A stretch of 64,000 nucleotides of DNA from Corallococcus sp. bb12-1 (GCF_026626765.1 NZ_JAPNJZ010000012.1:205012-269011), one strand, 5' to 3'; counted from the stretch's first letter, positions 4,958 to 60,906 are shown. The notes: a model not told the origin generated them from the sequence alone. Translations and numbers: made by a program.

Positions 4958-4968
4958 GGGAGGTTGCT

Positions 4969-5307: not shown

Positions 5308-5329
5308 CCGCCGCCTCCTTGGTTCCGGT

Positions 5330-6859: not shown

Positions 6860-6889
6860 GCGCCTGGTTCTCCGGGTCCGAGCGGTGCG

Positions 6890-29721: not shown

Positions 29722-29739
29722 GGTGGACGTTCTCTCCTG

Positions 29740-30471
29740 TCAAGACGAGGCGGGCTGCGGATCCGGACGTGTGGCGGGTGGGGTGGACGGCTCGCGCGAG
29801 GGGGGCGGCTCCGGCAGCAGGGCTCCAGTCGCGCGCTCCTTGAGCAGCTCGGAGAACTCGTCGCCCAGGAGGCGCAGCTCCACCAGCACGCGGGAGAGCC
29901 GGGCCTGGAAGTAGTTGTAGAAGACCATCGCCTGCACGGCGACGAGGATGCCCACGGCGGTGGCGACGAGCGCTTCGGAGATGCCCGTCATCACGGCCGC
30001 GGAGCCGCCGGTGCCGCCGGCCTCCACGTCCACGCCCAGGTCCTTGAAGGAGCGCATGATGCCGGCCACGGTGCCGAAGAGGCCCACGAAGGGCGTCGTC
30101 GAACCGATGGTGGCGAGCAGCCACAGGTTGCGCCTGAGCTTGAGGCCCACCTGGGCGCGCTCGCGCTCCACGGCGGACTCGATGCCATTGCCGCCACTGG
30201 CGCGGCTTCGCTCCCAGCGGTCGAAGCCCGCGAGGAAGATGTCGGCGGCCACCGCGTCGGAGCGCTCGGCGGCGGTGCGGGCCGCGGCCACGTCCCCGCG
30301 GAGCAGGTGCTTGTTGACGATTTCGCCCAGGCTGCGGGACCGCTCGCTCACGCCCCAGAGGGCAATGAGCCTTTCGACGGCCACGCCCAGGGCCACCACG
30401 GAGGCGCCCAGGAGGAGGGCGAGGGTGACGCCGCCCAGGCGAAGGTAATGAAGTAGATCGTTCAGGCTCAT
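29740..30471 (-). CDS. exbB: MotA/TolQ/ExbB-family proton-channel protein
   Basis: Three TM pattern and conserved …TIGSTTPFVGLFGTVAGIM… segment. Confidence 0.85.
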   Translation of the reverse strand: MSLNDLLHYLRLGGVTLALLLGASVVALGVAVERLIALWGVSERSRSLGEIVNKHLLRGDVAAARTAAERSDAVAADIFLAGFDRWERSRASGGNGIESAVERERAQVGLKLRRNLWLLATIGSTTPFVGLFGTVAGIMRSFKDLGVDVEAGGTGGSAAVMTGISEALVATAVGILVAVQAMVFYNYFQARLSRVLVELRLLGDEFSELLKERATGALLPEPPPSREPSTPPATRPDPQPASS

Positions 30472-30513
30472 GGTTGATGACCGGGCAGGGAGCCCTGGCT
30501 CACACTAGGACAT

Positions 30514-31341
30514 ATGAACCGCGCAGCCGCCGCAATCTTCCTGGCCCTCCTCTGTTCGGCCTGCCCCAAACGCCTCGAGTTCGGTCCGGAGGGCCGCATC
30601 GAGGACGCCCAGACGCTCTACCAGCATGTGCAGGAGCGGCAGGGTCGGGTGGTGACCCTGGAGGGCGACTCCAAGCTGCGCGTGGATTCCCCCCAGGGCA
30701 GTGGAACGCTCTCCACCTTCCTCTCCATCACCCGGCCGGGCCTCATCCACCTGGAGACGTACGACTTCTTCAACCGCCCGGTCGCCTCGCTCGTGTCCGA
30801 CGGGACACGTTTCGGCGTCTACCAGGCGCAGGGCAACACCTACTACCAGGGCCCCTCCAGCCCTGAGAACGTGTCCCGCTTCCTGCCCATCGTCCTGCCG
30901 AGCGAGGAACTGGTGGCCGTCATGCTGGGCCAGGTCCCCCTCCTGCCCCCGGAGTCCATGACCCTGGCGCTGGATGAGAAGGCGCGCGTGTACGTGCTCA
31001 CGCTGGTGCGGGGCGCGGCCACACAGACACTCCGCGTGGATCCCCGGCACCTGCGGGTGGTGAAAAGCGAGGTCCGGGGCGTGCCGGGCTACGACCTAGC
31101 GTTCGAGGACTTCAAGCAGCGCGGCGAGCTGCTCTTCCCCGGCAAGGTCATCCTCACGGCGTCCCAGGCGGACACGAAGCTGGAGCTGCGCTACACGGAG
31201 ATCACCCTCAACGGCCGGCCGGACCTGACGCTCTACGAGCTGACGGCCCCGGAGGGCGCGAAGGTGGTGGACGTGGACGAGCGGGGCCGGGAGCTGGGTG
31301 GGGGCGCGGTGTCGCCACCGCCCCCAGCGCCGGGTTCCTGA
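30514..31341 (+). CDS. Lipoprotein, LolA-like / DUF4292-type fold (outer-membrane lipoprotein-carrier-like)
   Basis: Lipobox LALLCSAC. β-rich sequence with LolA-like pattern. First gene of the long plus-strand block. Confidence 0.55.
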   Translation: MNRAAAAIFLALLCSACPKRLEFGPEGRIEDAQTLYQHVQERQGRVVTLEGDSKLRVDSPQGSGTLSTFLSITRPGLIHLETYDFFNRPVASLVSDGTRFGVYQAQGNTYYQGPSSPENVSRFLPIVLPSEELVAVMLGQVPLLPPESMTLALDEKARVYVLTLVRGAATQTLRVDPRHLRVVKSEVRGVPGYDLAFEDFKQRGELLFPGKVILTASQADTKLELRYTEITLNGRPDLTLYELTAPEGAKVVDVDERGRELGGGAVSPPPPAPGS

Positions 31342-31400
31342 GCTTCCAGGCGTCGAAAGGCAGCGTACCAGCCCAAGTCGGGTACACTGACGCGCACGAC

Positions 31401-32159
31401 ATGGCACAGATCAAGCTCGGAGAACTGCTGATCAAGGCGAACGTCCTGCAGGAGAGCCAGCTCAAGGCGGCGCTCGCCGAGCAGGCCAAGTGGGGCGGGA
31501 AGCTGGGCGAGATCCTCGTCCGGATGAACCTCGTCTCCGAGGACATCCTCGTGCGCGCCCTGTCGAAACAACTGGGCATGCCGGCGGTGAACCTGGACGC
31601 CGTGCAGATGGTTCCGCCGCACGTGAAGGCGAAGATTCCCTCGCAGACGGCGCGCGACTTCTCCGTCGTGCCGCTCCAACTGCGCGACGACGGCAAGACG
31701 TTGGTGGTGGCCATGTCGGACCCGCTCAACGTGCGGGTGCTCGACGAGCTCCGGGCCCTGTCCAAGTGCCGCATCGTGGCCAACGTGGCGGGCCGTACGT
31801 CGGTGGCGCGGGCGTTCGCGCGCCTCTACGAGGAGTCCGCGGAGCTGGAGGACGCGGACACGAACTTCAAGGTGGTGGACGCCCAGGGGCGTACCGTCGT
31901 GAAGAGCCTCAAGGACCTGGAGGCGGCCGGCGCCGCAGCCACCGCGCCCGCTCCGGCCCGTCCGGCGGCCCCCGCGGCCCGTCCGGCGCCCCCCGCGGAG
32001 GCGCCCCGTTCGGCGGCCTCCGGCAGTCCGGCGGAGCTGCTCAAGAGCGTGGAAGAGGTCCAGCGCAAGGAGGTCGCGGCGCTCAAGGCCATGGTGGAGC
32101 TGCTCATCGAGAAGGGCGTTTTTTCTCGCGAGGAATACCTCGCCAAGGTCAAGCGGTAG
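31401..32159 (+). CDS. Stand-alone MshEN (T2SSE_N / GspE N-terminal) domain protein; predicted c-di-GMP binding
   Basis: N-terminus KLGELLIKANVLQESQLKAALAEQ fits the MshEN motif RLGxxL(V/I)xxGx(I/V)xxxQLxxALxxQ. Second …DARDF..VPLQ…D..L.VAM.DPLN region. No ATPase domain. Confidence 0.75.
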   Translation: MAQIKLGELLIKANVLQESQLKAALAEQAKWGGKLGEILVRMNLVSEDILVRALSKQLGMPAVNLDAVQMVPPHVKAKIPSQTARDFSVVPLQLRDDGKTLVVAMSDPLNVRVLDELRALSKCRIVANVAGRTSVARAFARLYEESAELEDADTNFKVVDAQGRTVVKSLKDLEAAGAAATAPAPARPAAPAARPAPPAEAPRSAASGSPAELLKSVEEVQRKEVAALKAMVELLIEKGVFSREEYLAKVKR

Positions 32160-32168
32160 CCAGCGGCC

Positions 32169-33154
32169 ATGCGCAAGAAGATTGGTGAACTCCTCGTCCA
32201 GGCCGGAGTGGTCACGGACGAGCAGGTGAAGCAGGCCCTTGCCTCCGGGCGGCGCGGTCAGGGCCGCAAACTGGGGGAAGTGTTGGTGTCCATGGGCCTG
32301 TGCACCGGCCAGGACATCGCGCGCGCGCTGGCGGCGCAGCACGAGCTGCCCTTCGTGGAGATCCCCGAGTACATCCCCCATGGGGTGTCCTCGCTGGTGT
32401 CCATGGACTTCCAGTCCGAGCATCGCGTGCTGCTCTTCGCGCTGGAGCAGGACGGCCGCAGCGAGAAGCTCCACGTCGCGGTGGAGGACCCTGGCAACCT
32501 CATGTTGGTGGATGAACTGCGCTTCCAGTTGCGCAAGCCCCTGAAGGTGTTCGTCGCTTCCTCGGACGACATGGATCAGGCGCTGGCGCGCGGCCGGGGC
32601 GAACCGCTGGACATCGTGGAGGCTGAACCCATGGATGAGATGGACGACGCGGACGATTCGCCGGACATCCTGCCGTCCCCGCCGCCCGCGCCCGCACGGT
32701 CCTCCGCGCGTCCGCCCGCGCCGCCGCCGCTGGACTGGGACCTGCCGCCCCCACCGCCGTCCGACTCACGTCCCGACGGCGCGGACGTGCTGGAGGACCT
32801 GCTGAGCGCGAAGCCCCGCTCCGCGCCGCCCCCGCCGCCCAAGCCCGCCGCGTCGAGGCCGCCGCCTCCGCCGCCCCCGGAGGACTCCGACCCGAACAAG
32901 CCGCGCGTGCCGGTGGTCGTCTTCGGCGGCGCCGCGCAGGGCGTCCGGCCGTCGATGGCGCTCACGCCCACGCCGGACTTCTCCGAGGAGGACCTGGCGG
33001 TGCTGGACGACATCGAGCGCATCTCGCGCGGTGAAGAGGCCAGCCTGGACACGGAGAAGGTGAAGCCCGCGCGCATGGTCGCGAGCCTCATCCGCCTGCT
33101 CATCCGCAAGGGCCTCATCCAGGAGTCGGAGTTCCTGGAGGAGCTGGCCCAGAA

Positions 33155-33158
<4 letters not shown>
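32169..33158 (+). CDS. Stand-alone MshEN (GspE N-terminal) domain protein with long Pro-rich C-terminal region
   Basis: [26 protein letters not shown]…[24 protein letters not shown] (two motif copies). C-terminal helix …[23 protein letters not shown] resembles the C-terminus of the preceding protein. No ATPase domain. Confidence 0.75.
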
Positions 33159-34176
<1,018 letters not shown>

Positions 34177-34180
<4 letters not shown>

Positions 34181-35232
34181 GCGAACCGCTGGTCCAGGTG
34201 CGTGACCTGAAGGTGCACTTCCCGGTGCGCGGCGGCTTCTTCGGACGCGCGAAGGGCGCGGTGCGCGCGGTGGACGGCGTGTCCTTCGACGTCGCGCGCG
34301 GTGAGACGCTGGGCCTCGTGGGGGAGAGTGGTTGCGGCAAGAGCACGCTGGGCCGCGCGGTGCTGCGCCTGCTGGAGCCCACGGCCGGCTCCATCCGCGT
34401 GGACGGACGCGAACTCACCGGCCTGTCGCAGCGCCAGTTGCGGCCCCTGCGTCGGCGCATGCAGCTCGTCTTCCAGGATCCGTACGCCTCGCTCAACCCG
34501 CGCATGACGGTGGGGGACATCCTCGCGGAGCCCTTCGCCATCCACGGCCTCGCGAAGGGCAAGGCGCGCGAGGAGGAGGTGCTGGCGCTCCTGGACGCCA
34601 TGGGCCTGCCTCGCGAGGCCCGGCACCGCTACCCGCACGAGTTCTCCGGCGGGCAACGTCAACGCATCGGGATTGCACGTGCCATCGCGTTGCGTCCGGA
34701 CCTGGTGGTGGCGGACGAGCCCATCAGCGCGCTGGACGTCTCCATCCAGGCGCAGATCGTCAACCTGCTGGTGGACCTGCAGCGCGAGCGCGGGCTCACC
34801 TATGTCTTCATCGCGCACGACCTGAAGATCGTGGAGTACGTGTCCACGCGCGTGGCGGTGATGTACCTGGGCCGCATCGTGGAGGTGGCGCCGTCGCGCG
34901 TGCTGTACGCCGGGCCCCGGCATCCGTACACGCAGGCGCTCCTGTCCGCGGTGCCCGTGCCGGATCCGGAGCGTCCCCGCACGCGCCTGCTCCTGCCGGG
35001 CGAGCCGCCCTCGCCGCTGTCTCCCCCGTCCGGGTGCTCGTTCCACCCTCGCTGCCCCTACGTGATGGAGCGCTGCCGGCGTGAGTCGCCGCCGCTCTAC
35101 CCGCTGGGGGACGGCCACGCCGCCGCGTGCTTCCTGGCCGAAGGGGACGCGCAGCGCGCCGGGCCCGTTCCCCCTGTTTCCGCGTCCGACGGAGGTCCCG
35201 GTGTTCTGGCTCAGCCATCATCACGCGGATGA
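34177..35232 (+). CDS. ABC transporter ATP-binding protein, OppF/DppF type
   Basis: Walker [10 protein letters not shown]. Signature [12 protein letters not shown] overlap with the previous gene. Confidence 0.9.
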
Positions 35233-35608
35233 GTACAACCGCACGTACGTGCTGGGCGGAGTGCGCGTCTGCGCGCGCTGCCTGGGCACCTACCCGGTGC
35301 TCGCCGCTGTCTTCATGGGGCTGTTCGCGCTGAAGGCGCCCCTTGCGTGGACGTGGGACGTGCCGGTGGGAGTGGCGCTCACGCTGCCGGCGCTGGTGGA
35401 CTGGGCGGTGGGGCGCTTCCGTCCGGCCTCGGGCAGCAACGCGGTGCGCACGCTGACGGGGGTGTTGCTGGGGCTGGGACTTGCCCGCTCGCTGTACATC
35501 CACGTGCAGCGCCCCCTGCCGGCGGTGCTGCTGGCACAGGCACTCCTGGTGACAGGGGTGGCGGTCCCTGTCATTCTCGCCACTTACCGGCGTCCACGGC
35601 CGGAATAG
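35201..35608 (+). CDS. DUF2085-like small membrane protein
   Basis: [28 protein letters not shown] matches the conserved H…C.RC.G.Y core of DUF2085, followed by TM helices. GTG start at 35201 is preceded by GGAGG. Overlaps the 3' end of oppF in another frame. Confidence 0.5.
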
Positions 35609-35671
35609 ACCTTTCCCGCGTGCCTGTCCGTTACAGGCAATGGGCGGGAAGGGGATGGCACCCGTGGCTTC

Positions 35672-36319
35672 ATGGGCACAGGGGGAGTGTTGGCACCCGA
35701 AACCTCAGACGAGCGGCTGATGCTCGCCTTCCAGGCGGGAGACGCGCGCGCGTTCGAAGCGCTGATGCGAAAGCACCGCGCGCCGGTGTTCAACTTCATC
35801 CTGCGCTTCGTCGGGCAGCGGGCGCGGGCGGAGGACGTGCTGCAGGAGACGTGGCTCAAGGTGGTTCGCAGCGCACGGGAATACACGCCGAAGGCCCGGT
35901 TCACGACCTGGCTGTACACCATCGCGAGGAACCTCTGCGTGGACAGCACGCGCAAAGAGAGCTACCGCCAGACGACATCCTTGGAGGCCCCCGTCGGTGG
36001 CACGGACGGGGACGAGGGACGTCCGCTGGGCGAGGGGCTGCCGGACTCCGGTGCCAGTCCGGAGCGCGGGGCGCACAACGCGCGCCTGCGGCCCCTGCTG
36101 GAGCGGGCCCTCGCGGGCCTGCCGGAAGAGCAGCGCGAGGTGTTCGTGTTGCGCGAGTACAGCGGCATCCCGTTCAAGGAGATCGCCGAGGTGACGGGCG
36201 TGTCCGAGAACACGGTGAAGAGTCGGATGCGCTACGCGTTGGAGGGACTGCGCCGTCGTCTGGGAGAACTGGGCGTGGATGGTGACCTGTCGGAGGATGG
36301 AAGGACGGTGGCGGGATGA
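35672..36319 (+). CDS. ECF (group IV) sigma-70 factor
   Basis: Region 2 (…FNFILRFVGQRARAEDVLQETWLKVVRS…) and region 4 HTH (…EVFVLREYSGIPFKEIAEVTGVSENTVKSRMRYALEGLRR…). Confidence 0.85.
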   Translation: MGTGGVLAPETSDERLMLAFQAGDARAFEALMRKHRAPVFNFILRFVGQRARAEDVLQETWLKVVRSAREYTPKARFTTWLYTIARNLCVDSTRKESYRQTTSLEAPVGGTDGDEGRPLGEGLPDSGASPERGAHNARLRPLLERALAGLPEEQREVFVLREYSGIPFKEIAEVTGVSENTVKSRMRYALEGLRRRLGELGVDGDLSEDGRTVAG

Positions 36320-37761
36320 GTGCCCAGAATGCCCATGCGCACGAGGACCGGCTCCTCGACTTCGCCTACGGCGAGCTGCCTGCGTCGGAGGCCCAGTCGC
36401 TGGAGCAGCACGTCCAGGGCTGCGCGCGCTGCTCCAAGGCCCTGTCGGACATCCGCGGCGTGCGCTCCACGATGGCGCACCTGTCGGTCGAACCGCCGCC
36501 GGACGCCGGCCTGGAATCGCTCCTGGCGTACGCGCAGCAGTCCGCGCGCCGCGCCGCCGCGGGGCCCGAACCAAAGCCCTCGCGCTGGCGCCGCTGGCTG
36601 TTGCCCGTGGTGGGCCTGGCCTCGGTGAGCACCTTCGGCTTGCTGACGCTGGAGGTCAGCAAGGACGTCAACCTCCAGCCGACGCTGACCCAGAAGGCCG
36701 AACCGGCGGCAGCGAAGGCGGACCGGACCCGGTCCTATGACGACGCCCCGGCCCGGCCCGCGGCGCCCGCGGCCATGCAGGCCGCGCCGCCCCCCGCGCC
36801 CATGGAGGGCGCGCTGCTGGACCGTGCGCAGCGGATGCAGGCGGAAGCCACCGTGGGCACCAAGGGTGGGGGCGAAGGTCGGCCCTCGGACTGGATGAAC
36901 GCGGGCAGTGGTGGCGCGCTGCTGGAGCGGCGTCGCGGGGCGGAGTCGAAGAAGCAGATGTCCGGCTTCAGCAAGTCGAAGTCGGAAGCGGCGAGGGACG
37001 CGCTCTCGGCCCCGTCGGCGGTGATGGACGACGAGGCGAAGGACTCCGCGCTCGCGCAGGGCTCGCTCGTTGGGAGCCGCTCGGGCCTCGGTGTCAGCAA
37101 TGGTATCGGCAATGGGGGCGGTGGCAGCGACAAGCTCCGCAAGGAAGAGGAAGGCTCGCTGCGGCTGGGCGGCGCGTCCTATGGGCGGGGCCTCGCCAAG
37201 GACGACGACGAGCTCGCGGAAGAGGCCGCGCCACCGCCGCCTGCGGATTCAGTGGTCGCCGCCGCGCCCATGGCGCCTTCCACGCCGCCGATGCCCACGG
37301 GCTCCATGCCCACGGGCTCCGTCCAGCGCAATCAGCAGGCTCCTGGCAAGGCGATGGCCGCCGCCGAGCAGATGCCCGCCACTGTTTCCAAGCCGAAGTC
37401 CGCGCCCGCGGAGAAGGCGGCCCGCGCCGATGCGATGACGACCGCGCGCGATCTGTCGCGTCAGGCGCAGGAAGCCGCGAGCCAGGGCGACCGCGCTCGG
37501 GAGTCCCAGTTGCTGCGCGCCGCGCTCGCGGCCGGGGCCACCGGAAGTGAACGCCTGTCGCTGCTCTCCCGCCTGTGCGAATCGGAGTACGCCCAGGGCC
37601 GGAGGACCGAAGGCGCGGAGGTCTGCGCGCGCATCCTCTCCGAGGCACCCGATTCCGAAGCGGCCCAGCGGGCCGGGCTGTGGCTGGGGCAGGGCGGGGC
37701 GGCGACCGTCCCCGTCAAGAAGGCCCCGGCCCAGGCCGCCCCTCTGCCGTCCAAGCAGTAG
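36316..37761 (+). CDS. Anti-sigma factor (zinc-finger HxxxCxxC N-terminal domain, one TM, large Ala/Pro-rich periplasmic region)
   Basis: ATGA overlap with the ECF gene. LEQHVQGCARCSKAL motif. TM WRRWLLPVVGLASVSTFGLLTL. Confidence 0.75.
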   Translation: MSAQNAHAHEDRLLDFAYGELPASEAQSLEQHVQGCARCSKALSDIRGVRSTMAHLSVEPPPDAGLESLLAYAQQSARRAAAGPEPKPSRWRRWLLPVVGLASVSTFGLLTLEVSKDVNLQPTLTQKAEPAAAKADRTRSYDDAPARPAAPAAMQAAPPPAPMEGALLDRAQRMQAEATVGTKGGGEGRPSDWMNAGSGGALLERRRGAESKKQMSGFSKSKSEAARDALSAPSAVMDDEAKDSALAQGSLVGSRSGLGVSNGIGNGGGGSDKLRKEEEGSLRLGGASYGRGLAKDDDELAEEAAPPPPADSVVAAAPMAPSTPPMPTGSMPTGSVQRNQQAPGKAMAAAEQMPATVSKPKSAPAEKAARADAMTTARDLSRQAQEAASQGDRARESQLLRAALAAGATGSERLSLLSRLCESEYAQGRRTEGAEVCARILSEAPDSEAAQRAGLWLGQGGAATVPVKKAPAQAAPLPSKQ

Positions 37762-37811
37762 CAGCTCCGGGGGACGGCGACGTCCGTCCCCCAGGTGACG
37801 CTCCAGTCCAG

Positions 37812-38114
37812 ATGACCGATGCAGCGGGCCTCCGGAGCCTGGATACTGGGAGGATGACGCCGGTCGTGGATCATCCCCCCGTGAGCACCCCCCGGAAGAC
37901 AGCGTCGCGCTCCCTGCGCCGGGCCAGTCGGGGTCAGGCGATGGTCGAGTACTCGGCGCTCAACTGGGTGCTGCTCGTGGCGCTCGTCGTCGGTGCCACC
38001 GTGAAGATCCAGTGGTCCGATGACCGGCAGAGCAACGTCATCGACCTGTTCCTCGAGGCGTACGAGATCTATTACGACTCGTTCTACTTCGTGTTGAACC
38101 TGCCGTTCCCCTGA
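37812..38114 (+). CDS. Flp/Fap-family type IVb prepilin (Tad pilus subunit)
   Basis: …RRASRG/QAMVEYSALNWVLLVALVVGATV… matches the Flp processing motif G/XXXXEY followed by a hydrophobic helix. Mature length about 59 aa. Alternative start ATG 37854. Confidence 0.6.
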   Translation: MTDAAGLRSLDTGRMTPVVDHPPVSTPRKTASRSLRRASRGQAMVEYSALNWVLLVALVVGATVKIQWSDDRQSNVIDLFLEAYEIYYDSFYFVLNLPFP

Positions 38115-38223
38115 CGCAGGGAGCCACGCGGATCATCGGCGGTCGCGCGGCCCAACCCAACAGGCAGGGAGGCGCTGGGGCCTCCGGGTGTCCTGGGATT
38201 CCGTTCTATCGTGAGAGGTGGTT

Positions 38224-38253
38224 TTGACACCTGCTCTGGCGCATGGCTAACAT
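38224..38253 (+). promoter_or_regulatory. Candidate sigma-70-type promoter upstream of cpaB (TTGACA-N18-TAACAT)
   Basis: ttgaca at 38224-38229 and taacat at 38248-38253 within the 228-bp flp-cpaB intergenic gap. Confidence 0.35.
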
Positions 38254-38341
38254 CCCACCCGTTCGCGCCCTGGCACCGCCCCCTCGTCAAAGCTGTCTTG
38301 CCGCCACGACGGCGCCCCACCGTTCTGGAGGACCTTGAACC

Positions 38342-39157
38342 ATGTTGAAGGGTAAGACCCCGCTCGTCGTCGCGCTGGTGCTCGGTTTGCTCGCGGGCAT
38401 CGTGGCCTATTCGGCCATCAAGAAGAAGGAATCGGATGTGCGTCGCGGGTGGAATCTGGTGCCCGTGGTGGTCGCGGGCACGGACATGCCCGAAGGGACG
38501 GTCATCACGTACGAGATGATCTCCCAGCGCTCCGTGCCCGAGCAGTTCGTCACCTCGTCGGTGGTGAAGCCGGACTCGGCCAACTACATCGTGAACCAGA
38601 AGGTGTTGGTGGCGCTGCAGGCCGGCGACCCCATCCTCTGGAGCCAGTTCGAGACGACGAAGGCCGCCGAGCGCCTGTCGACGAAGGTGCAGAAGAAGGC
38701 GCGCGCCATCACCATCGAGGCGAAGCACACGACGTCGGTGGGCGGCTGGATCCGTCCCAACGACCACGTGGACATCATCGGCACGTTCCGCGATCCGCAG
38801 ACGGACGAGAGCGTCGCCGTGACGCTGCTGCAGAACATCATCGTGGTCGCCACGGGCAAGATCACCGGCACCACGAACATCAACCTCATCCCGGAGAGCC
38901 AGCGCGAGTACTCCAACGTGTCGCTGATGGTGCTGCCGGAAGAGGCGGAGATCCTGGTGCTGGCAGCGGAGCTGGGCAACCTGACCCTGTCCTTGCGCAA
39001 CGAGGACGACGTGGACCTCATCGAGGAGCGCGGTCGCGCCACCATCAGCACGCTGCTGTCCGGCGAGCGCACCCGGGTGCTGGAGCAGAAGCGCCGGGAG
39101 ATCATCCAGATCATCAAGGGCGGCACCGGCGAGAAGGCCTCGGCCGGCTCTCCGTAG
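38342..39157 (+). CDS. cpaB: Flp pilus assembly protein CpaB/RcpC (SAF-domain)
   Basis: N-terminal TM (LVVALVLGLLAGIVAY). SAF-like region. Characteristic …ITIEAKHTTSVGGWIRPNDHVDII… CpaB core. Confidence 0.85.
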   Translation: MLKGKTPLVVALVLGLLAGIVAYSAIKKKESDVRRGWNLVPVVVAGTDMPEGTVITYEMISQRSVPEQFVTSSVVKPDSANYIVNQKVLVALQAGDPILWSQFETTKAAERLSTKVQKKARAITIEAKHTTSVGGWIRPNDHVDIIGTFRDPQTDESVAVTLLQNIIVVATGKITGTTNINLIPESQREYSNVSLMVLPEEAEILVLAAELGNLTLSLRNEDDVDLIEERGRATISTLLSGERTRVLEQKRREIIQIIKGGTGEKASAGSP

Positions 39158-39229
39158 TGGCCCGCGGGGGCTGCTTCGTCTGAAGCAGCCCCGCCGGCTT
39201 CTCCCTCTTCCTCACGGGGATTCCCGCCC

Positions 39230-40075
39230 ATGCTCGCAGGTATCGTCCTCCTTCTCGTCACCGGCTCGGTGTTCTTCTTCAGCCTGGTGATCTTCAGCGT
39301 CCTGTCGAAGGCGTATGAGCAGTACCAGGAGCGCTACGTCGCCAAGTCGATGAACGACTTGAGCGACATGTTCCTCTTCATCGACGCGCGGCAGATGTTG
39401 ATCCTCAACATCGCCATGATGTGCCTCCTGGGCATCCTCAGCTACATCATCTTCAACCCCATCCTGGCGTTGATCGCGACCATCTTCGGCTTCTTCCTGC
39501 CGATGCTGATGGTGAAGCACTACCGCAAGCGCCGGATCAAGAAGTTCAACGTGCAGCTCGTGGACGCGCTGCAGGCCATGGCCAACGCGTTCAAGGCGGG
39601 CCTCACGTTCCCCCAGGCCATCGAGCACGTGGCGCGCGAAGCAATGCCGCCGCTGTCCCAGGAGTTCGGCCTGTTCGTGAAGGAAGTGAAGCTGGGCGTC
39701 CCCCTGGAAGAGGCCCTGGTGAACATGGGCCGCCGCGTGGGCAGTGACGACCTGGAGCTGGTGGTGGTGTCCACCAACATCGCGCGCCAACTGGGCGGCA
39801 ACATGGCGGAGATGTTCGAGACCATCTCCACGGTGATCCGCGAGCGCTTCCGCCTGGAGGGCAAGATCGACGCCCTCACGTCCCAGGGCAAGCTGCAGGG
39901 GTGGATCGTCGCGGCCATGCCGGCTGTCCTCGGCATGGTGCTCAACTACATGCGCCCGGACCTGATGGAGCCGATGTTGGATCACCTCTTCGGCTACATC
40001 CTGGTGACCATCATCGCCATCATGGAGATCATGGGCATCCTCATCATCCGGAAAATCGTCAACATCGACATTTGA
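39230..40075 (+). CDS. tadB: Tad pilus inner-membrane platform protein TadB (T2SS-F domain)
   Basis: N-terminal TM. T2SSF domain pattern (…LVDALQAMANAFKAGLTFPQAIEHVA…). C-terminal TMs. 281 aa. Confidence 0.85.
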   Translation: MLAGIVLLLVTGSVFFFSLVIFSVLSKAYEQYQERYVAKSMNDLSDMFLFIDARQMLILNIAMMCLLGILSYIIFNPILALIATIFGFFLPMLMVKHYRKRRIKKFNVQLVDALQAMANAFKAGLTFPQAIEHVAREAMPPLSQEFGLFVKEVKLGVPLEEALVNMGRRVGSDDLELVVVSTNIARQLGGNMAEMFETISTVIRERFRLEGKIDALTSQGKLQGWIVAAMPAVLGMVLNYMRPDLMEPMLDHLFGYILVTIIAIMEIMGILIIRKIVNIDI

Positions 40076-40088
40076 AACGAGGCGCACC

Positions 40089-40979
40089 GTGCAGGAGATT
40101 CTGACAGCCTTGTTGATCGGTGGCTCGACGCTGCTGACCGTGGGGGCCTTTACGTTCCTGGGCGTGGGCCTCTACACCAACGTCCTGGAGCACTTCCTCA
40201 CGGAGGTCCGCGACGAGTCCGCGGGCGGCATGAAGGGCGTGGGCTCCGTCGCCATCCGCAAGTTGGGGGCGATGAACCGGCGCTTCATGTGGCCGGGCTA
40301 CGAGTCCAAGACGCGCCGCAAGCTCATCAAGGCGGGCGAACCGTCGCAGTACAAGCCCGAGGACATCATGGCGCTGCAGGAAGTCAGCGCCTTCCTGGCC
40401 CTGCTGGCCGGCCTCTTCGTCATCAACGGCATCGGGATGAACCTGGCCTGGTCGCTGCTGGTGATGCTGTTGGGCCTGTTCTATCCGCTCATCTGGTTGA
40501 ACGATCAGGTGAAGCGCCGTCACCTGGCCATCAGCCGCGCGCTTCCGTACAACATCGACCTGCTGACGCTGTCGGTGGAAGCGGGCATGGACTTCACGGG
40601 CGCGCTGGCGAAGGTGGTGGAGAAGGGTCGCCAGGGGCCGCTGCGCGAGGAGCTGCAGCTGGTGCTCAAGCAGCTCAAGATGGGCAAGACGCGTGAAGAG
40701 GGCTTGAAGGGCATGATCGCGCGCGTGGACCTGCCGCCCCTGACGACGTTCGTCACGGCGCTGATCCAGGCGGACAAGATGGGCACCAGCCTGGGCAAGG
40801 TGCTGCGCATCCAGTCCACGCAGATGCGCATCGACCGGACGCAGCGCGCGGAGAAGCTGGCGGGTGAAGCGCCGGTGAAGATGCTCTTCCCGCTCATCGC
40901 CTGCATCTTCCCGACGGTGTTCATGGTGCTCTTCGGGCCCATCGTGTTCCAGTTCATGTACGGCAACGTCGGGGGCTAG
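40089..40979 (+). CDS. tadC: Tad pilus inner-membrane platform protein TadC (T2SS-F domain)
   Basis: T2SSF domain (…LPYNIDLLTLSVEAGMDFTGALAKVVE…). GTG start. 296 aa. Confidence 0.85.
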   Translation: MQEILTALLIGGSTLLTVGAFTFLGVGLYTNVLEHFLTEVRDESAGGMKGVGSVAIRKLGAMNRRFMWPGYESKTRRKLIKAGEPSQYKPEDIMALQEVSAFLALLAGLFVINGIGMNLAWSLLVMLLGLFYPLIWLNDQVKRRHLAISRALPYNIDLLTLSVEAGMDFTGALAKVVEKGRQGPLREELQLVLKQLKMGKTREEGLKGMIARVDLPPLTTFVTALIQADKMGTSLGKVLRIQSTQMRIDRTQRAEKLAGEAPVKMLFPLIACIFPTVFMVLFGPIVFQFMYGNVGG

Positions 40980-41052
40980 TCCTCTGCCGATCCTGCTCAC
41001 CATCACCCAGGGGCTCCAGGTTGGTAGGGAGCTCGCCTTCGAGCAGGCCGAG

Positions 41053-44000
41053 GTGAAGATCGGCCGGACCTCGGAGAACGACCTGGTGCTGCATGACCAC
41101 GGGGTCTCCCGGCGTCATGCCCGCATCACGGCGAGGGACGGGCAGTACTTCGCCGAGGACGTGGGCAGCGCCAACGGCACGCAGCTCAACGGCCAGCCGC
41201 TCGGCGGGCAGAAGCAGCTGCGCGACGGGGATCGCATCACCGTCGGGCCGGTGGAGTTCACCTTCGTCTGGATGCCGCAGGACGACGAGGCGGACGTCAC
41301 CCGGCCCATCCGCAGGGTGCTCGCGCCGGCGCATGCGCAGGTGTCGCCGCCGCAGGGCCTGGAGCAGGCCTCGCTCGCGGAGATCGAAGCCGCGCCCACG
41401 AGCTACCAGCAGTCGCTGCCGGTGATGGCGAGGCCGTCCTTCCTGCCGACCCCGCAGCGTTCCGGGGCCGCGGTGAAGAGCCTGGCGACGCCCGCGGCGC
41501 CGCTGGCGCCCCCTCCCACGAAGAAGCCGGAGGCCGTGGTGCCTCCGCCGAAACGGCCCTCCGCTCCCGACCTTCCGGCGGTGGGCGCGCCCGCGCAGGG
41601 CCGCGCTTCGGGGCCGCGCCTTCCCGCGCTGGGAGCGCCCACGTTGAACAGGGCCGCCCGTCCGGCAGGGGACGCCTCCTCGCAGGGCCGTGCATCCGGT
41701 CCGGGCCTCCCTGCTGGCGGAGCATCCACGTCAAACCGGGTCGCGCCTCCCCTAGAGGGAACTCCCGCGCAGGGCCGTGCATCCGGTCCGGGCCTCGCCG
41801 CTGTCGGAGCGTCCACGCCGAACCGGGCCGCGCCTGACGTGCAGGGGGCGCCCGCGCAGGGCCGCGCTTCGGGGCCGGGTCTCCCCGTCGCGGGTGGTTC
41901 CGCGAAGGGCGGACCTTCTGCCCCAGGCCAGTCCGCCGCTTCAGGCAAATTCTCGGCACCGGGCCCAGCCTCGCCTGACGCCTCCTCCGCACCGAAGCGG
42001 GTCGCCCCTCCGGGCCCGCCCGTGCTCGATGCCGCCGCGCCGAAGAAAGCCCCGCCGGGCCTGCCCTCGGTCGGCGCTCCCGCGCTGAACCGTCCCTCCC
42101 TGGGGCGCGGTGCCGCGCGAGGGGCCGAGGCGGCGAAACCTCCGTCGCTCCAAGCGGACGCCGCCGCCGCGCCGCCTCCGCCGGGCCCGCCCGCTCCGCA
42201 CAGGGATGCGCCGTCTGTCTCTCCCCCCGCGAGTGGAAGGCCGCCCGCGTCGCCTCCGGTGAACAGGGGCGCGGTGGCTTCGGTACCCTTGCTGCCCTCT
42301 GTTCCGGCGCTGACGCCTCCCGTGGCGCCCACGCCCGTGCGGGGTCCGTCAGCTCCAGCTCCCGGCCTTCCCGTACTGTCTCCTTCCGGGTTCGTGCCGC
42401 CTCCGGTGACCGCTCCTGTCGCTTCATGGGACGCGCCTCCGGCGGGCCTGTCCCCGGTGGATCCGGACGAGCCCGAGGAGCGCACGCTGATGGCGATTCC
42501 CGTGGTGCAGTCGCCTGGGCCTGTCCTGGCTGCTCCTCCGGTGGCGCCCCCCGCGTTGTCCTTCGTGGATCCGGACGAGCCCGAAGAGCACACGCTGATG
42601 GCGATCTCCACGGTGGACTCGCCGGAGCCCCTGCTTCCTGCGCCCCCGGTGGCGTTCCCCGCGCTCGCCTTCGTGGATCTGGAGGAGCCCGAGGAGCGCA
42701 CGTTGATGGCGATCTCCGCGGTGGACTCGCCTGAGCCCCGGACCCAAGCCGCACCGTCATTCGGCCCTCCGGAGGCAGCGGCCCTTCCGTCGGTGGCGGA
42801 GGAGGAGCCCGAGGAGCACACCGTCCTCGACCTGCGGCCCATCGTCCCCGTCAGTCCGCTGGTGCCGCGCCCGGTGTTGCATGGGGCGCCTCCACCGAAG
42901 GCGGCTGCCCCTGCCTTCTCCGCGGAACCGCCGACGTACGTGGGGCAGGACCAGGACATCCCTTCCGCCCCGCCGGACGACGCCTTGTCCGACGTGCAGA
43001 CCTTCATCGGCAAGGACGGACCTGGCGCGCCCCCTGTTCTGGCGCCTTCCCCGGCGCGAAGCGCTCCGGTCGCTCCGCCTCCGCCTTTTGATCCGGCCTT
43101 TGATCCGGTGACGTTCGTGGGCAAGGACCGGCCGGACGCGGCGGCGCCCCCCGCATCGCTGGCCGCTTCACCGCCGGCCGCGGAGGCCGGCCTGCTGGCC
43201 CTCCTCTCTTCGGACGAAGGCGACGCCACCCAGCCCCTCCCGCCGTCCGACCCGGACGCCTCCTCCTCCCAGCCGGCGCGCTCCGTGACGGTCGTCGCCA
43301 AGGTCGAACCCTCGACCGCCGCCGACAAGGCCCGGAAGCGGCGCCAGCTCGCCCGCACGCTGGGCGGCCAGTTCGTCCTCTTCTGGAATCGCCAGTCCCT
43401 GCTCCGCCGCGTCGGCTACGCGTCCCTCGCGGGTGTCGTCGTGCTGGCGGCGCTGTTCGGCGTGGTGACCGCCGTGACGTCCCAGTCGCTCCGGCTGCCG
43501 GGCCGGGAGCCCTTCAAGCTGGGCCTGGAGCCGGTGCCGGACTCGTTCGGCTTCGGCCAGGGCGTGCGCTGGTCCCACGTAGACGACAAGGTCTTCGACT
43601 TCCGCTTCGTCTCGCCCACGCGCGCGGTGGCGGTGCTGCACTACCAGGCCAGCAACATCTCCAAGGATGAGGTCAACCTGTCGCTCAACGGCGTGTCCCT
43701 GGGCTGGGTCCCGCCGGACACGGCCCAGACGCAGGAGCGCGAGCTGGAGCAGGTGATGCCCCCGGGCCTGCTGCGCCGCAACGAGAACAACCAGCTGCTC
43801 TTCGACAACGCCCTCAACCCGCCCGGTCAGGAGAGCTGGCGCATCTGGAACCTCCGGCTGGAGATCATCCCGGTGCCGGAGCTGCCGCCGGCTCAGCTGT
43901 TGGCGTCCGCTCGGGAAGCCGCGATGGCGGGTGCCCGGTTCTACGAACTCAAGGACGTGGGCGGGGAGAACCTCTTCAGGGCCTGGCAGCAGTACCGCGC

Positions 44001-44253
44001 CGCGTGGATCACCCTGGAAGCGCTGGATGAGAAGCCGGAGCTCTACGAGGACGTCCGGGAGCGGATCGCCCGGATTTCAACGGAGCTGGACCACCGGTGC
44101 GGTCAGCTGATGCTGGAATTCCAGCAGGCCGTCCAGTACCGGAGTCGGCGTCAGGCGGTCGCGGCCCTGGCGGAAGTGCGGAGACGCTTCCCTAGCACCG
44201 AGCATCGCTGCCACAATCTCGCGCTGGAAAAAGCCTATGAGCATGAACTCTAG
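41053..44253 (+). CDS. FHA-domain protein with long Pro/Ala-rich repetitive linker, one TM, and about 270 aa C-terminal (periplasmic) domain
   Basis: FHA core …IGRTSENDLVLHDHGVSRRHARI…GSANGTQLNGQPL…RDGDRITVGPVEF. TM LAGVVVLAALFGVVTAV near residue 800. FHA similarity continues in-frame upstream to about 40981 with no canonical start codon. Confidence 0.8.
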   Translation: MKIGRTSENDLVLHDHGVSRRHARITARDGQYFAEDVGSANGTQLNGQPLGGQKQLRDGDRITVGPVEFTFVWMPQDDEADVTRPIRRVLAPAHAQVSPPQGLEQASLAEIEAAPTSYQQSLPVMARPSFLPTPQRSGAAVKSLATPAAPLAPPPTKKPEAVVPPPKRPSAPDLPAVGAPAQGRASGPRLPALGAPTLNRAARPAGDASSQGRASGPGLPAGGASTSNRVAPPLEGTPAQGRASGPGLAAVGASTPNRAAPDVQGAPAQGRASGPGLPVAGGSAKGGPSAPGQSAASGKFSAPGPASPDASSAPKRVAPPGPPVLDAAAPKKAPPGLPSVGAPALNRPSLGRGAARGAEAAKPPSLQADAAAAPPPPGPPAPHRDAPSVSPPASGRPPASPPVNRGAVASVPLLPSVPALTPPVAPTPVRGPSAPAPGLPVLSPSGFVPPPVTAPVASWDAPPAGLSPVDPDEPEERTLMAIPVVQSPGPVLAAPPVAPPALSFVDPDEPEEHTLMAISTVDSPEPLLPAPPVAFPALAFVDLEEPEERTLMAISAVDSPEPRTQAAPSFGPPEAAALPSVAEEEPEEHTVLDLRPIVPVSPLVPRPVLHGAPPPKAAAPAFSAEPPTYVGQDQDIPSAPPDDALSDVQTFIGKDGPGAPPVLAPSPARSAPVAPPPPFDPAFDPVTFVGKDRPDAAAPPASLAASPPAAEAGLLALLSSDEGDATQPLPPSDPDASSSQPARSVTVVAKVEPSTAADKARKRRQLARTLGGQFVLFWNRQSLLRRVGYASLAGVVVLAALFGVVTAVTSQSLRLPGREPFKLGLEPVPDSFGFGQGVRWSHVDDKVFDFRFVSPTRAVAVLHYQASNISKDEVNLSLNGVSLGWVPPDTAQTQERELEQVMPPGLLRRNENNQLLFDNALNPPGQESWRIWNLRLEIIPVPELPPAQLLASAREAAMAGARFYELKDVGGENLFRAWQQYRAAWITLEALDEKPELYEDVRERIARISTELDHRCGQLMLEFQQAVQYRSRRQAVAALAEVRRRFPSTEHRCHNLALEKAYEHEL
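41575..41900. repeat. About 3.6 tandem copies of an 87-90 bp in-frame repeat (AQGRASGPGLPA…NRAA) in the FHA gene
   Basis: cagggccg(c/t)gc(t/a)tc(g/c)gg(g/t)ccg recurs at about 41593, 41683, 41770 and 41857. Confidence 0.7.
42445..42790. repeat. Three tandem copies (plus a partial fourth) of a roughly 108-111 bp in-frame repeat (DPDEPEERTLMAI.VVDSPEP…PPVA.PAL.FV)
   Basis: gatccggacgagcccga(g/a)gagc(g/a)cacgctgatggcgat recurs at about 42457, 42568 and 42676. Confidence 0.7.
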
Positions 44254-44280
44254 GGTTCGTGCCCCCCTCAGCAGGACGCG

Positions 44281-46029
44281 GTGAACACCATGTCGAACGG
44301 TCCTCCCCCAGCCCGCCGAAGGCCCACTTCGGGTACGCCCTCTTCCGGGACCGGACAACGCGCGCCGGTCCGTCGGTCGACCGCCGGTGTCTCCGCGGCG
44401 AAGCCCGCGAAGCTCGTGGTCATCGCGGGCCCCAGCGAGGGCGCGGAGTTCCCGCTCTCCGAGCTGGAGTACACGGTCGGCCGCGCCTCCGACAATCCCA
44501 TCTGCCTTCAGGACACGTCCGTCTCCCGCAAGCACATCACGCTGCGCAAGGAGTCCGCAGGCTGGTACGTCAGCGACATGAAGTCGGGCAACGGCACGCT
44601 CGTCAACGACGAGCCCGTCACCGACGAGACGCTGCTGGCCAACGGCGACGTCATCACGCTGGGCGACTCGGAGATGCGCTACGAGGACGTGGCCAACAGC
44701 ACCGCCAAGGTGCAGGCGCCGCCGTCGGGCCCCAGGCCCCGTCCGTCCACGGGCGGGAGCCGTTCCTCCCCGGCGGTGCCCGTGCGTCCCGGCCCCGGTC
44801 GCGCGCGCCCGCAGACGTCGCGCGCCTCCGCCGCCGCGGAGCAGACGCCGGAGATGCAGCGCAAGAAGCTGCGGATGAAGCTCGCGGGCGTGGGCGTGGT
44901 GGTGGTGCTCCTCGCCGGCCTGGGCGTCGCGCGCACCCGCATGCAGAAGCAGCAGGAGGAGCAGGTCCGCATCGAGCAGGAGCAGCTCGACTACCGCGCG
45001 CAACTGGGCGCCCTCTTCCAGGAGGCCAAGAACCTGGTGCGCGAGGGCCAGTGGCAGCAGGCCAAGGTGAAGTTGATGGAGCTCCAGGAGCAGGCGCCCG
45101 AGTACCCCGGCGTGGCCGACTACCTGAAGGCCGCGGAGAAGGAGATCCCCAACCAGGGACACCTGACGGCGGCCCAGTCGGCGATGACCAAGGGGGAGCT
45201 TGCCTCCGCGCAGGCGTCGCTCGCCAAGGTGGGCAGCGACACGCAGTTGTACGAGCAGCTGAAGACGGCCCGCAGGGCGCTGACCAACGCGGCCGACGCA
45301 CGCACGAAGGAGGCCAACACGCTGATGGCCACCCGTCAGCTGGAGTCGGTGCAGAAGGCCAAGGCCATCACCGACGACGTGCTGGTGACCTTCCCGGAGC
45401 ACCGCGACGGCAAGCTCATCAACGAGGAGGCCGCGCGCATCATCGCGGATCTGACGCGTCCGGAGCCCGTGCGGGTGGCGGCGGCGCCCAAGCCCTGGGA
45501 GCCCGCGGTGGACCGGTTCCGCGACGGTGACATGACCGGCGCGGTGGCCATCCTCAACACGTGCCTGGGCAAGACGCCCCAGTGCAAGCAGTACATGACG
45601 CAGATGACGGAGTTCGGGAACCTCTACAAGAAGCTGGAGGACCTGGACGCCAAGGGCCTGACGCGGCTGCTGGCGCTCGACAAGGACATCACCGACGGCC
45701 GGGGCAGCAAGATGGCGCGCAACGCGGGCACCCGCGCGGCGACGACCTTCTACAAGAGCGCCGCCGCCGCGAAGGCCTCCGCGCAGTACACGCGCGCGAT
45801 GGAGCTCGCCCGCCGCGCGCTCCAGGCGGACCCCAACCACACGGGCGCCGCCAACATCGTCAGCGACCTGCGGGCCAAGGCCAAGGACCTGTACATGCAG
45901 GCCTACTCCATCAAGGACTCCAGCCCGGACGAAGCGCTGCCCCAGTTCAAGGACGTCGTCTCCATGACGCCGCCGGACGACGAGCTGCACGGCAAGGCCC
46001 AGGGCTGGGTCGAGAAGCTGTCGCGATGA
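44281..46029 (+). CDS. FHA-domain membrane protein with C-terminal TPR-like/helical domain
   Basis: FHA (KLVVIAGPSEGAEFPLSELEYTVGRASDNPICLQDTSVSRKHITL…SGNGTLVNDEPV…). TM GVGVVVVLLAGLGVA. Stop overlaps the xseA start (ATGA). Confidence 0.8.
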   Translation: MNTMSNGPPPARRRPTSGTPSSGTGQRAPVRRSTAGVSAAKPAKLVVIAGPSEGAEFPLSELEYTVGRASDNPICLQDTSVSRKHITLRKESAGWYVSDMKSGNGTLVNDEPVTDETLLANGDVITLGDSEMRYEDVANSTAKVQAPPSGPRPRPSTGGSRSSPAVPVRPGPGRARPQTSRASAAAEQTPEMQRKKLRMKLAGVGVVVVLLAGLGVARTRMQKQQEEQVRIEQEQLDYRAQLGALFQEAKNLVREGQWQQAKVKLMELQEQAPEYPGVADYLKAAEKEIPNQGHLTAAQSAMTKGELASAQASLAKVGSDTQLYEQLKTARRALTNAADARTKEANTLMATRQLESVQKAKAITDDVLVTFPEHRDGKLINEEAARIIADLTRPEPVRVAAAPKPWEPAVDRFRDGDMTGAVAILNTCLGKTPQCKQYMTQMTEFGNLYKKLEDLDAKGLTRLLALDKDITDGRGSKMARNAGTRAATTFYKSAAAAKASAQYTRAMELARRALQADPNHTGAANIVSDLRAKAKDLYMQAYSIKDSSPDEALPQFKDVVSMTPPDDELHGKAQGWVEKLSR

Positions 46030-47738: not shown

Positions 47739-47779
47739 CGGGCCACCCTCTACATTCCGCGCCCCGCTCGGGGAGGTGG

Positions 47780-48118: not shown

Positions 48119-48145
48119 GTATCAGGGGAAGGGCGGAGGCCGGGA

Positions 48146-48535: not shown

Positions 48536-48540
48536 CTCCG

Positions 48541-59729: not shown

Positions 59730-59792
59730 CATCCACCGGGGTTCGTCCCACGGACCCCCCAGGCGCAAGCTTCGAGAAGGCGGACAACACTC

Positions 59793-60116: not shown

Positions 60117-60119
60117 TCC

Positions 60120-60845: not shown

Positions 60846-60906
60846 AGCCCGCCCACCGCGCCGTCATTTCCGGCGGCGCGGGGGTGGAACAACCGGGGGT
60901 GCCACC

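Follow-up and report, generated by a model that had tools for sequence, protein, structure and literature searches.

The genes at 36316-46029 of a 64,000-nucleotide stretch of the Corallococcus sp. bb12-1 genome (NZ_JAPNJZ010000012.1:205012-269011) are very probably the Corallococcus orthologue of Myxococcus xanthus kil cluster II, whose products make up the inner-membrane and periplasmic part of Kil, a Tad-like (type IVc) pilus and machine for contact-dependent prey killing. We call the whole stretch the window, and count positions from its start. Kil, the main contact-killing device of myxobacterial predators, is a published system (Seef et al. 2021 eLife, PMC8460266; Herrou et al. 2025 Nat Commun, PMC12075869), and Corallococcus kil genes already appear in a supplementary table of the second paper; the window adds no new kind of system. 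What it adds is a compact cluster II architecture without the local tip genes called Tip4, together with its junction; an expanded FHA protein with a CTG start; and three conserved promoter-like elements.

As published, M. xanthus cluster II comprises MXAN_4648 (FHA and TPR domains), MXAN_4649 (FHA, PrgH-like), MXAN_4650 (KilH), MXAN_4651 (KilG), MXAN_4652 (KilB), MXAN_4653-4654, MXAN_4655 (KilK), MXAN_4656-4657, MXAN_4658 (KilL), MXAN_4659 (TadG-like), MXAN_4660 (KilM) and MXAN_4661 (zinc finger) (PMC8460266). The Tip4 minor pilins KilM4, KilN4 and KilL4 are the products of MXAN_4660-4658, inside the cluster. In the window, the genes for an anti-sigma factor, KilK, KilB, KilG, KilH and two FHA proteins follow the order and orientation of MXAN_4661-4648. 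Identity to the M. xanthus AM003 proteins is 91% for KilB, 95% for KilG, 80% for KilH, 67-70% for KilK and 60-62% for the two FHA proteins, and KilB, KilG and KilH are 92-100% conserved across Corallococcus species.

The agreement extends well beyond the cluster on both sides. Around the orthologue of the window's MshEN gene, M. xanthus has genes for a HEAT-peptidyl-prolyl isomerase, a response regulator-HD protein, a DapB-like protein, two MaoC proteins, an acyl-CoA dehydrogenase, ExbD, ExbB and a 278-amino-acid protein, and then for MshEN, MshEN, ABC, ABC, DUF2085, extracytoplasmic function (ECF) sigma, zf-HC2, TadE, Tad and TadE proteins; from the HEAT-isomerase to zf-HC2 this order is the window's, gene by gene. 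On the downstream side of the cluster come xseA, xseB, a response regulator gene, ispA, dxs and tlyA. Beyond them an unannotated gene lies on the - strand (51935-53494), and genes for a hybrid histidine kinase, an MXAN_4639-like TPR protein and a hydrolase lead up to bacNOP-padC, in agreement with the numbering from MXAN_4647 down to MXAN_4634. An earlier sequence-only reading of the window had proposed that the block is the cluster-2 half of the Kil apparatus, had pointed to bacNOP-padC as a downstream landmark, and had named synteny with M. xanthus as one check. The landmark is indeed in place, the two genomes are collinear from exbBD through bacNOP-padC, and the shared order, shared flanks and 60-95% protein identity bear the proposal out.

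The G+C content of the window is about 70%, and third-position GC bias (GC3) was therefore used to call genes. This gave 14 genes within 30514-46029, all on the + strand (Table 1), and all of these open reading frames are intact, with GC3 values of 0.84-0.95. Gaps between them run mostly from -32 to +92 bp, the largest (227 bp) being that 5' of kilB, which confirms the 14 co-directional, closely spaced or overlapping genes of the sequence-only reading. Domains were called by Pfam and NCBIfam profile searches with model cut-offs, and the remaining approximately 56 called genes of the window were scanned with Pfam, one 68-amino-acid open reading frame (14796-15002) being left out. These searches upheld the earlier calls of CpaB, two T2SSF proteins, two FHA proteins and others; the Flp pilin call gained no profile match. 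Rfam and tRNA scans of the whole window returned no matches.

Table 1. Features of the kil cluster II region of the window and its surroundings
Feature	Position	Strand	Basis
DUF4292 / LolB-like predicted lipoprotein	30514-31341	+	Pfam DUF4292, 48.6 bits; N-terminal signal sequence with Cys
MshEN protein 1, 252 amino acids, stand-alone, no ATPase domain	31401-32159	+	Pfam MshEN; NF053729 64.8 (cut-off 38)
MshEN protein 2, 329 amino acids, stand-alone	32169-33158	+	Pfam MshEN; NF053729 62.2 (cut-off 38)
OppD/DppD-like orphan ABC ATPase	33155-34180	+	ABC_tran and oligo_HPY; best NCBIfam models are dipeptide/OppD ATPases, below cut-off
OppF/DppF-like orphan ABC ATPase	34177-35232	+	ABC_tran and oligo_HPY; NF008453 416.7 (cut-off 408)
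DUF2085 small membrane protein	35201-35608	+	Pfam; the 135-amino-acid form agrees with the gene called in M. xanthus
Conserved promoter-like element before the ECF sigma gene	35549-35632	+	GTGACA-N17-(TGT)CATTCT, then TAGAYC-N17-CGTT
ECF sigma factor	35672-36319	+	Sigma70_r2 and r4_2; NF009166 267.9 (cut-off 206)
zf-HC2 transmembrane anti-sigma factor, MXAN_4661 orthologue	36316-37761	+	zf-HC2; one transmembrane segment, residues 94-112; same position in M. xanthus
Conserved element GTCCAnnTGACCGATGC ... GATACT	37806-37853	+	Ends 6 nucleotides before ATG 37854
kilK, Flp-type minor adapter pilin	37854-38114	+	67-70% identity to M. xanthus KilK; RG/QAMVEYSAL motif, then hydrophobic helix
Sigma-70-like promoter of kilB (predicted), TTGACA-N18-TAACAT	38224-38253	+	Sole such site in 19.6 kb
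kilB (CpaB/RcpC)	38342-39157	+	RcpC and SAF (Pfam); TIGR03177 189.9 (cut-off 71)
kilG (TadB-type platform protein)	39230-40075	+	T2SSF; predicted transmembrane segments
kilH (TadC-type platform protein)	40089-40979	+	T2SSF
MXAN_4649 orthologue, 1089 amino acids, CTG start	40984-44253	+	
MXAN_4648 orthologue	44281-46029	+	FHA, Yop-YscD_cpl, weak TPR matches; one transmembrane segment, residues 196-214; 60% identity to M. xanthus
bacN-bacO-bacP-padC landmark	59388-62340		

A search of species-representative genomes with KilB (CpaB) gave 80 loci, 75 of them orthologous and 5 paralogous CpaB loci. The top locus was that of C. terminator CA054A, whose KilB is 100% identical and whose contig aligns with the window at 96.8% nucleotide identity over 16.3 kb in a single collinear alignment.

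Among the scanned genes of the 64-kb window, Pfam found no secretin, T2SSE/CpaF ATPase, TadZ/ParA-type ATPase or prepilin peptidase, as the sequence-only reading had noted for CpaC/RcpA, CpaF/TadA, TadZ/CpaE and the peptidase. The secretin KilC, the ATPase KilF, the peptidase KilA, KilD, the major pilin KilP and all tip complexes would be encoded outside the window. Herrou Supplementary Data 1 (PMC12075869) lists homologues of cluster I, KilP and Tip1/Tip2 in two complete Corallococcus genomes. In these two genomes cluster I lies 81 and 88 genes from KilB (HMM table, PMC12075869); the distance between clusters I and II is about 1500 genes in M. xanthus and about 1500-2400 in Myxococcus and Archangium (PMC12075869). 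By gene count, cluster I would fall roughly 40 genes past the left end of the window. The suggestion that the missing parts come from another locus thus stood as far as cluster I is concerned; it did not stand for TadZ, which is absent from the published Kil parts list. Nor is there a complete Tad locus on the same operon: by the published table cluster I is near, but lies beyond the window and on another transcript.

In M. xanthus, KilB, KilG and KilH are essential for prey lysis, KilG-NG assembles at the site of prey contact, and KilP is polymerised into the pilus. For Corallococcus, orthology predicts that KilG and KilH form the TadB/TadC platform and that KilB, the CpaB protein, connects this platform with the secretin in the periplasm. 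KilK, the Flp-type adapter, would attach a tip of minor pilins to the KilP filament and prime polymerisation. The M. xanthus protein is a minor Flp pilin that Tip1, Tip2 and Tip4 need as their adapter, and no pilus is made when kilK and kilO are both mutated (PMC12075869).

The kilK interval and the FHA proteins

The sequence-only reading's expectation of an M. xanthus-like cluster II failed in one respect: the Tip4 minor-pilin block is missing. Searches by tblastn with M. xanthus KilM4, KilN4 and KilL4 gave no match in the window, where the best E was 0.15, and none in any of the 12 Corallococcus-type loci, and those with the products of MXAN_4657, MXAN_4656 and MXAN_4653 found nothing in the window or the Corallococcus loci; MXAN_4654 was not tested separately. 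This block of about 8 kb is therefore missing in all 12 Corallococcus-type loci, and by the same method some 40 loci of other genera carry block genes. The spacing of the flanking genes tells the same story. From the anti-sigma stop to the kilB start there are 585-641 bp in 11 of the 12 Corallococcus-type loci (the ones in which the contig extends to the anti-sigma gene), 7.3-9.5 kb in Myxococcus, Pyxidicoccus, Citreicoccus, Archangium, Cystobacter, Hyalangium and Vitiosangium, and mostly 1.4-1.9 kb, with one case of about 0.6 kb, in a deeper group of metagenome-assembled genomes. We also observed that the Tip4-kilK block between the two genes is inverted, relative to Myxococcus, in loci of Archangium, Cystobacter and Vitiosangium. 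As the block can be present, inverted or deleted, the interval is a rearrangement hot spot.

The sequence in front of kilK suggests how the compact arrangement might have come about. The conserved element at this position in the window is the one that precedes kilM4 in Myxococcus, Hyalangium and Citreicoccus: 37806-37822 (GTCCAGATGACCGATGC) aligns 33-49 nucleotides upstream of the M. xanthus kilM4 ATG, and from 37879 onward the window matches the start of M. xanthus kilK, a GTG. The window thus has an ATG at the position of the kilM4 ATG (37854), in the same frame as the native kilK GTG at 37881. The junction at 37800-37885 looks like a deletion scar that joins the kilM4 upstream element to kilK, and the placing of a -10-like GATACT 6 nucleotides before the ATG suggests that the kilK mRNA is leaderless.

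Loss of Tip4 in Corallococcus is the more parsimonious history, because Myxococcus and the Archangium-type genera both have the block. It is also possible that the compact arrangement is ancestral, as deep metagenome-assembled genomes have it too. Tips appear to be supplied from other loci: five tip-like clusters have been modelled for C. coralloides (COCOR_620-622, 1099-1101, 2819-2821, 7211-7213 and 7640-7642; PMC12075869), and their locus tags are scattered widely around the genome. A natural cluster II without Tip4 should be useful for asking what a local tip contributes.

The two FHA genes that follow kilH each encode a protein with one predicted transmembrane segment. In the first, the MXAN_4649 orthologue, a cytoplasmic FHA domain of the YscD/PrgH type is followed by a Pro/Ala repeat linker of about 600 amino acids, the transmembrane helix, and a periplasmic beta-sandwich with a TPR-like bundle. 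The second, the MXAN_4648 orthologue, has a periplasmic helical/TPR region and weak SctD similarity in NCBIfam. Both retain the phosphothreonine-binding residues of FHA domains, GR / SRxH / NG (IGRTSEND...VSRRHARI...SANG in the first protein and VGRASDNP...VSRKHITL...SGNG in the second), and KilF and KilD carry FHA domains too (PMC8460266). The most economical, and in our view most likely, reading of these sequences is that the two bitopic proteins would serve as phosphorylation-dependent scaffolds, recruiting or gating the FHA-bearing ATPase KilF and KilD at the site of prey contact.

The first FHA protein is also unusually long, with 1089 amino acids in the window versus 460-540 in the homologues returned from other genera. 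Its extra cytoplasmic stretch of about 600 residues (window 41300-43350) is Pro/Ala-rich, contains tandem repeats of 87 bp (3.4 copies) and 108 bp (2.6 copies), and repeats the motif DPDEPEE[RH]TLMAI; across six Corallococcus loci the corresponding gene-sized interval measures about 2.85-3.4 kb. The frame has no ATG, GTG or TTG from the upstream stop (40879) to a GTG at 41053. A CTG at 40984, by comparison, stands 4 nucleotides after the kilH stop with GGGGG 8 nucleotides upstream. The homologous start codon is CTG in 37 loci, GTG in 10 (M. xanthus among them), ATG in 4 and TTG in 2, and in 33 of the 37 CTG loci no canonical start lies upstream in the frame. A protein begun at GTG 41053 would lack the first two FHA strands. 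Translated from the CTG, it matches Yop-YscD_cpl over profile positions 2-91 with 64.8 bits, versus 20-91 with 53.9 bits from the GTG. On these sequence grounds, the start of the gene is CTG 40984 and not GTG 41053. The correct start and the domain map are new for the uncharacterised MXAN_4649 type of FHA protein.

Transcription units and alternative readings

We mapped candidate promoters that divide what had been taken for one operon. One of them lies in front of kilB. In 75 of 75 orthologous loci, the 200 bp before kilB contain the pattern TTGAC[AGT]-N16-19-TANNAT; all the fetched loci together (1.35 Mb) hold 75 matches on the + strand, each upstream of kilB, and the pattern was not found in the five paralogous CpaB loci.

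Another conserved element precedes the ECF sigma gene and overlaps the 3' end of the DUF2085 gene. It has the form GTGACA-N17-TGTCATTCT with a 7-bp inverted repeat, TGACAGG/CCTGTCA, and is near-invariant in 21 loci of several genera, including Archangium loci with no DUF2085 homologue upstream (tblastn, E<1e-5). It may be a promoter or an operator. We asked whether its motif recurs elsewhere, as direct control of kilK or kilB by the sigma factor would predict. Neither TAGAYC-N17-CGTT nor the palindromic element has a second copy in the window, including the sequences before kilK and kilB, which gives that idea no support, and we have set it aside.

With the kilB promoter in every orthologous locus and conserved elements before kilK and the ECF sigma gene, the single 21 kb operon of the sequence-only reading is unlikely. 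A modular pattern is probable: the ECF sigma and anti-sigma genes in one unit, kilK in another, and kilB, kilG, kilH and the two FHA genes in a third that possibly continues into xseA. Intrinsic terminators numbered 3 against 6.2 expected, none of them convincing. The stop of the second FHA gene overlaps the xseA start by 4 nucleotides, implying that the kilB unit may read into the housekeeping genes; the essential isoprenoid genes may be partly co-transcribed with kil. The genes in question (xseA, xseB, response regulator, ispA, dxs and tlyA, 46026-51922) are separated by gaps of -4 to 41 bp, and their order is kept in all loci examined.

Several points weigh against an active Kil machine as the meaning of this locus. 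The functional roles are inferred wholly from experiments on M. xanthus, and for MXAN_4648 and MXAN_4649 themselves we found no published phenotype in the literature searched. KilK matched no Pfam family (E<=0.1), Flp_Fap included, and no NCBIfam model, as is also the case for M. xanthus KilK in Seef Table 1 (PMC8460266). The promoters are deduced from conservation alone, and the loss of local tip genes could mean that function has changed in Corallococcus.

The last point, pressed further, would make the locus a decaying remnant disabled by the deletion of about 8 kb of tip genes. The absence of the Tip4 block and of MXAN_4653, MXAN_4656 and MXAN_4657 homologues throughout the Corallococcus-type loci would fit such decay, as would the scar-like junction. 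However, the remaining open reading frames are intact and have strong codon bias, KilB, KilG and KilH are highly conserved within the genus, and the kilB promoter is retained; kilK itself sits directly behind the former kilM4 element, in frame with the ATG at the kilM4 position. Moreover, M. xanthus Tip4 mutants still kill, the other tips being redundant, and five other tip-like clusters are modelled for C. coralloides. We therefore regard decay as very improbable. Still less credible is the reading of the locus as one fragment of a common adhesive Tad/Flp pilus cluster, unconnected with predation. Such a cluster would share CpaB, TadB, TadC and a Flp-like pilin, which belong to Tad systems in general, but it would hardly show 80-95% protein identity to, and full collinearity with, an experimentally defined kil cluster II, nor the two FHA proteins typical of Kil; and the lack of an adjacent secretin, ATPase or TadZ and of a Flp_Fap match for the pilin also speaks against it.

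Genes upstream of the sigma factor and in the flanks

The block opens with a predicted lipoprotein that the sequence-only reading had called LolA-like. It proved instead to be LolB-like, matching NCBIfam LolB1_Flavo over its full length at 38 bits, under the cut-off of 50; a sequence search of the PDB with this protein gave no match. Its gene is divergent from exbD-exbB (29266-30514), with start codons 42 bp apart, and the same is seen in M. xanthus. Two stand-alone MshEN proteins follow. MshEN1 gives a full-domain match to the N-domains of PilB, PilF and MshE, is 84% identical to its M. xanthus DK1622 orthologue and 100% identical to a protein of Corallococcus sp. bb12-1, and among the matches listed has close orthologues (at least 73% identity) as homologues. 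MshEN2 has a Pro-rich linker and a C-terminal helix resembling that of MshEN1, and its PDB matches include Vibrio cholerae MshE (5htl). We noticed that contigs of at least six draft assemblies of Corallococcus end at its poly-proline tract (amino acids 220-238, window 32790-32890), probably because the GC-rich CCG/CCC run affects assembly or coverage. From their sequences, both proteins are predicted receptors of cyclic di-GMP (c-di-GMP).

The next two genes encode an OppD/OppF-like pair of ABC ATPases, the start of the second overlapping the stop of the first (ATGA). An open reading frame at 34332-35084, considered as the second ABC gene, was in the wrong frame; GC3 gives 34177-35232. Neither an ABC permease (BPD_transp) nor a binding protein (SBP_bac_5) was found in the scanned genes of the window. 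After the DUF2085 gene, the sigma factor consists of regions 2 and 4 only, and its stop overlaps the anti-sigma start by 4 nucleotides. The M. xanthus counterpart of this anti-sigma gene, MXAN_4661, is the 'putative zinc-finger' of Seef Table 1 and the last gene of the published cluster II (PMC8460266).

It is possible, although rather unlikely, that all 14 genes at 30514-46029 form one co-transcribed functional unit in which the upstream eight are regulatory or energising parts of Kil. They are co-directional with tiny or overlapping gaps; the order MshEN-MshEN-ABC-ABC-DUF2085-ECF-anti-sigma-kil is found in every locus that reaches so far, including metagenome-assembled genomes with a KilB of 75-80% identity, and in M. 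xanthus; and the anti-sigma gene, already within cluster II, overlaps the sigma gene. MshEN domains, the N-domains by which type IV filament ATPases sense c-di-GMP, are the usual regulators of these ATPases, and both MshEN proteins in the window pass the NF053729 model of the c-di-GMP motif. Moreover, an ECF sigma gene beside CpaB-like genes recurs at an unrelated locus in some metagenome-assembled genomes. However, xseA, xseB, ispA, dxs and tlyA are just as syntenic in the same loci. As these housekeeping genes are equally conserved in order, order says little about function here, and we rejected synteny as proof that the upstream genes belong to Kil. The conserved internal promoter-like elements oppose a single transcript, the single occurrence of TAGAYC-N17-CGTT gives no sign that the sigma factor drives kilK or kilB, and we found no mention of MXAN_4662-4670 in the literature searched. 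Counting the six genes that precede the sigma gene as parts of the machine is an argument from adjacency. We consider it unlikely that these six are members of the Kil system; they are candidates only.

A narrower proposal, which we hold to be quite unlikely, is that the MshEN pair, the OppD/OppF pair with DUF2085, and the ECF sigma factor with its MXAN_4661-type anti-sigma factor are an undescribed control module for Kil. The KilF ATPase has an FHA domain where PilB-type ATPases have MshEN, and the detached MshEN proteins could therefore provide c-di-GMP control in trans. The ECF/anti-sigma pair would report the state of the envelope or contact with prey, and the Corallococcus system would run without a locally encoded tip and with an FHA scaffold of doubled length. 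The pair of predicted c-di-GMP receptors and the sigma factor, all encoded beside the cluster, are candidates for the signal that triggers Kil assembly on prey contact, and, taken with the anti-sigma partner, they are the best open lead from this work. In M. xanthus there are 17 MshEN proteins, most of them unstudied.

The second loci in metagenome-assembled genomes deserve a brief description. Some of these genomes have, apart from the kil locus, a KilB-like CpaB of 75-81% identity with no kilG or kilH (L047 8379-12136, L069 4200-7980, L068, L072 and L073). L069 has an ECF sigma gene, next to it a gene for a 327-amino-acid protein with a CpaB domain and an N-terminal extension, and then the KilB paralogue; in L047 the paralogue has an ECF sigma gene about 1 kb upstream. 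These loci may represent a CpaB-type anti-sigma arrangement.

Some further genes lie in the flanks. A hybrid histidine kinase at 54003-56519 has GAF, HisKA, HATPase and receiver domains and a weak, partial C-terminal GGDEF match; it shares the neighbourhood with the two predicted c-di-GMP receptors. At 56582-58480, two genes upstream of bacN, a 632-amino-acid TPR protein occupies the position of MXAN_4639, a gene entered in the Kil table of Seef et al. as having a Caulobacter homologue (PMC8460266). On the - strand at 3000-11576 there is a complete chemosensory cluster, with a CheA-CheW fusion, CheW, a methyl-accepting chemotaxis protein, an ABC1 kinase, an ABM monooxygenase, CheB and CheR; the chemotaxis protein carries an N-terminal bacterial globin and a PAS domain.

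Comparison with known systems

The individual components resemble, and depart from, several well-studied proteins. Like SctD (YscD/PrgH) of type III secretion systems, the FHA proteins have an N-terminal cytoplasmic FHA domain of the Yop-YscD_cpl type, a single transmembrane helix and a periplasmic domain; unlike SctD, they have no ring-building motifs that we could find in the periplasmic region after the FHA domain and helix. The MshEN proteins share with MshE, PilB and PilF the whole two-subdomain fold region, the tandem 24-residue motifs and the extended consensus (R/K/L)LGxx(L/V/I)(L/V/I)xxG... (PMC11731258). They differ in standing alone, in having Lys for the first Arg in all four motifs and, in MshEN1, in having Asn for the motif Gly. 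Work on PilF GSPII-B shows that Lys at the first motif position is compatible with very tight c-di-GMP binding. Of an Opp/Dpp importer, the window has both ATPases, but OppB/OppC permeases and OppA were not found in it.

With canonical Tad/Flp loci (Aggregatibacter flp-tad-rcp, Caulobacter cpa) the locus has in common a TadB/TadC pair, CpaB/RcpC and a short Flp-type pilin with a G/xxxxEY processing motif. It differs from them in lacking a secretin, an ATPase, a prepilin peptidase and TadZ/CpaE, and in its added FHA membrane proteins; its pilin falls below the Flp_Fap profile, and KilK in M. xanthus is an adapter rather than the major pilin.

The closest relative is M. xanthus cluster II itself. 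Corallococcus departs from it in missing the homologues of KilM4, KilN4, KilL4, MXAN_4657, MXAN_4656 and MXAN_4653, with 580 bp from the anti-sigma gene to kilB in the window versus about 8 kb in M. xanthus, and in the MXAN_4649-type protein, which has a GTG start and about half the length in M. xanthus versus a CTG start and a repeat-rich linker in the window. The two nevertheless share their gene order, the flanks on both sides, the kilB promoter and a locus that is without secretin or ATPase.

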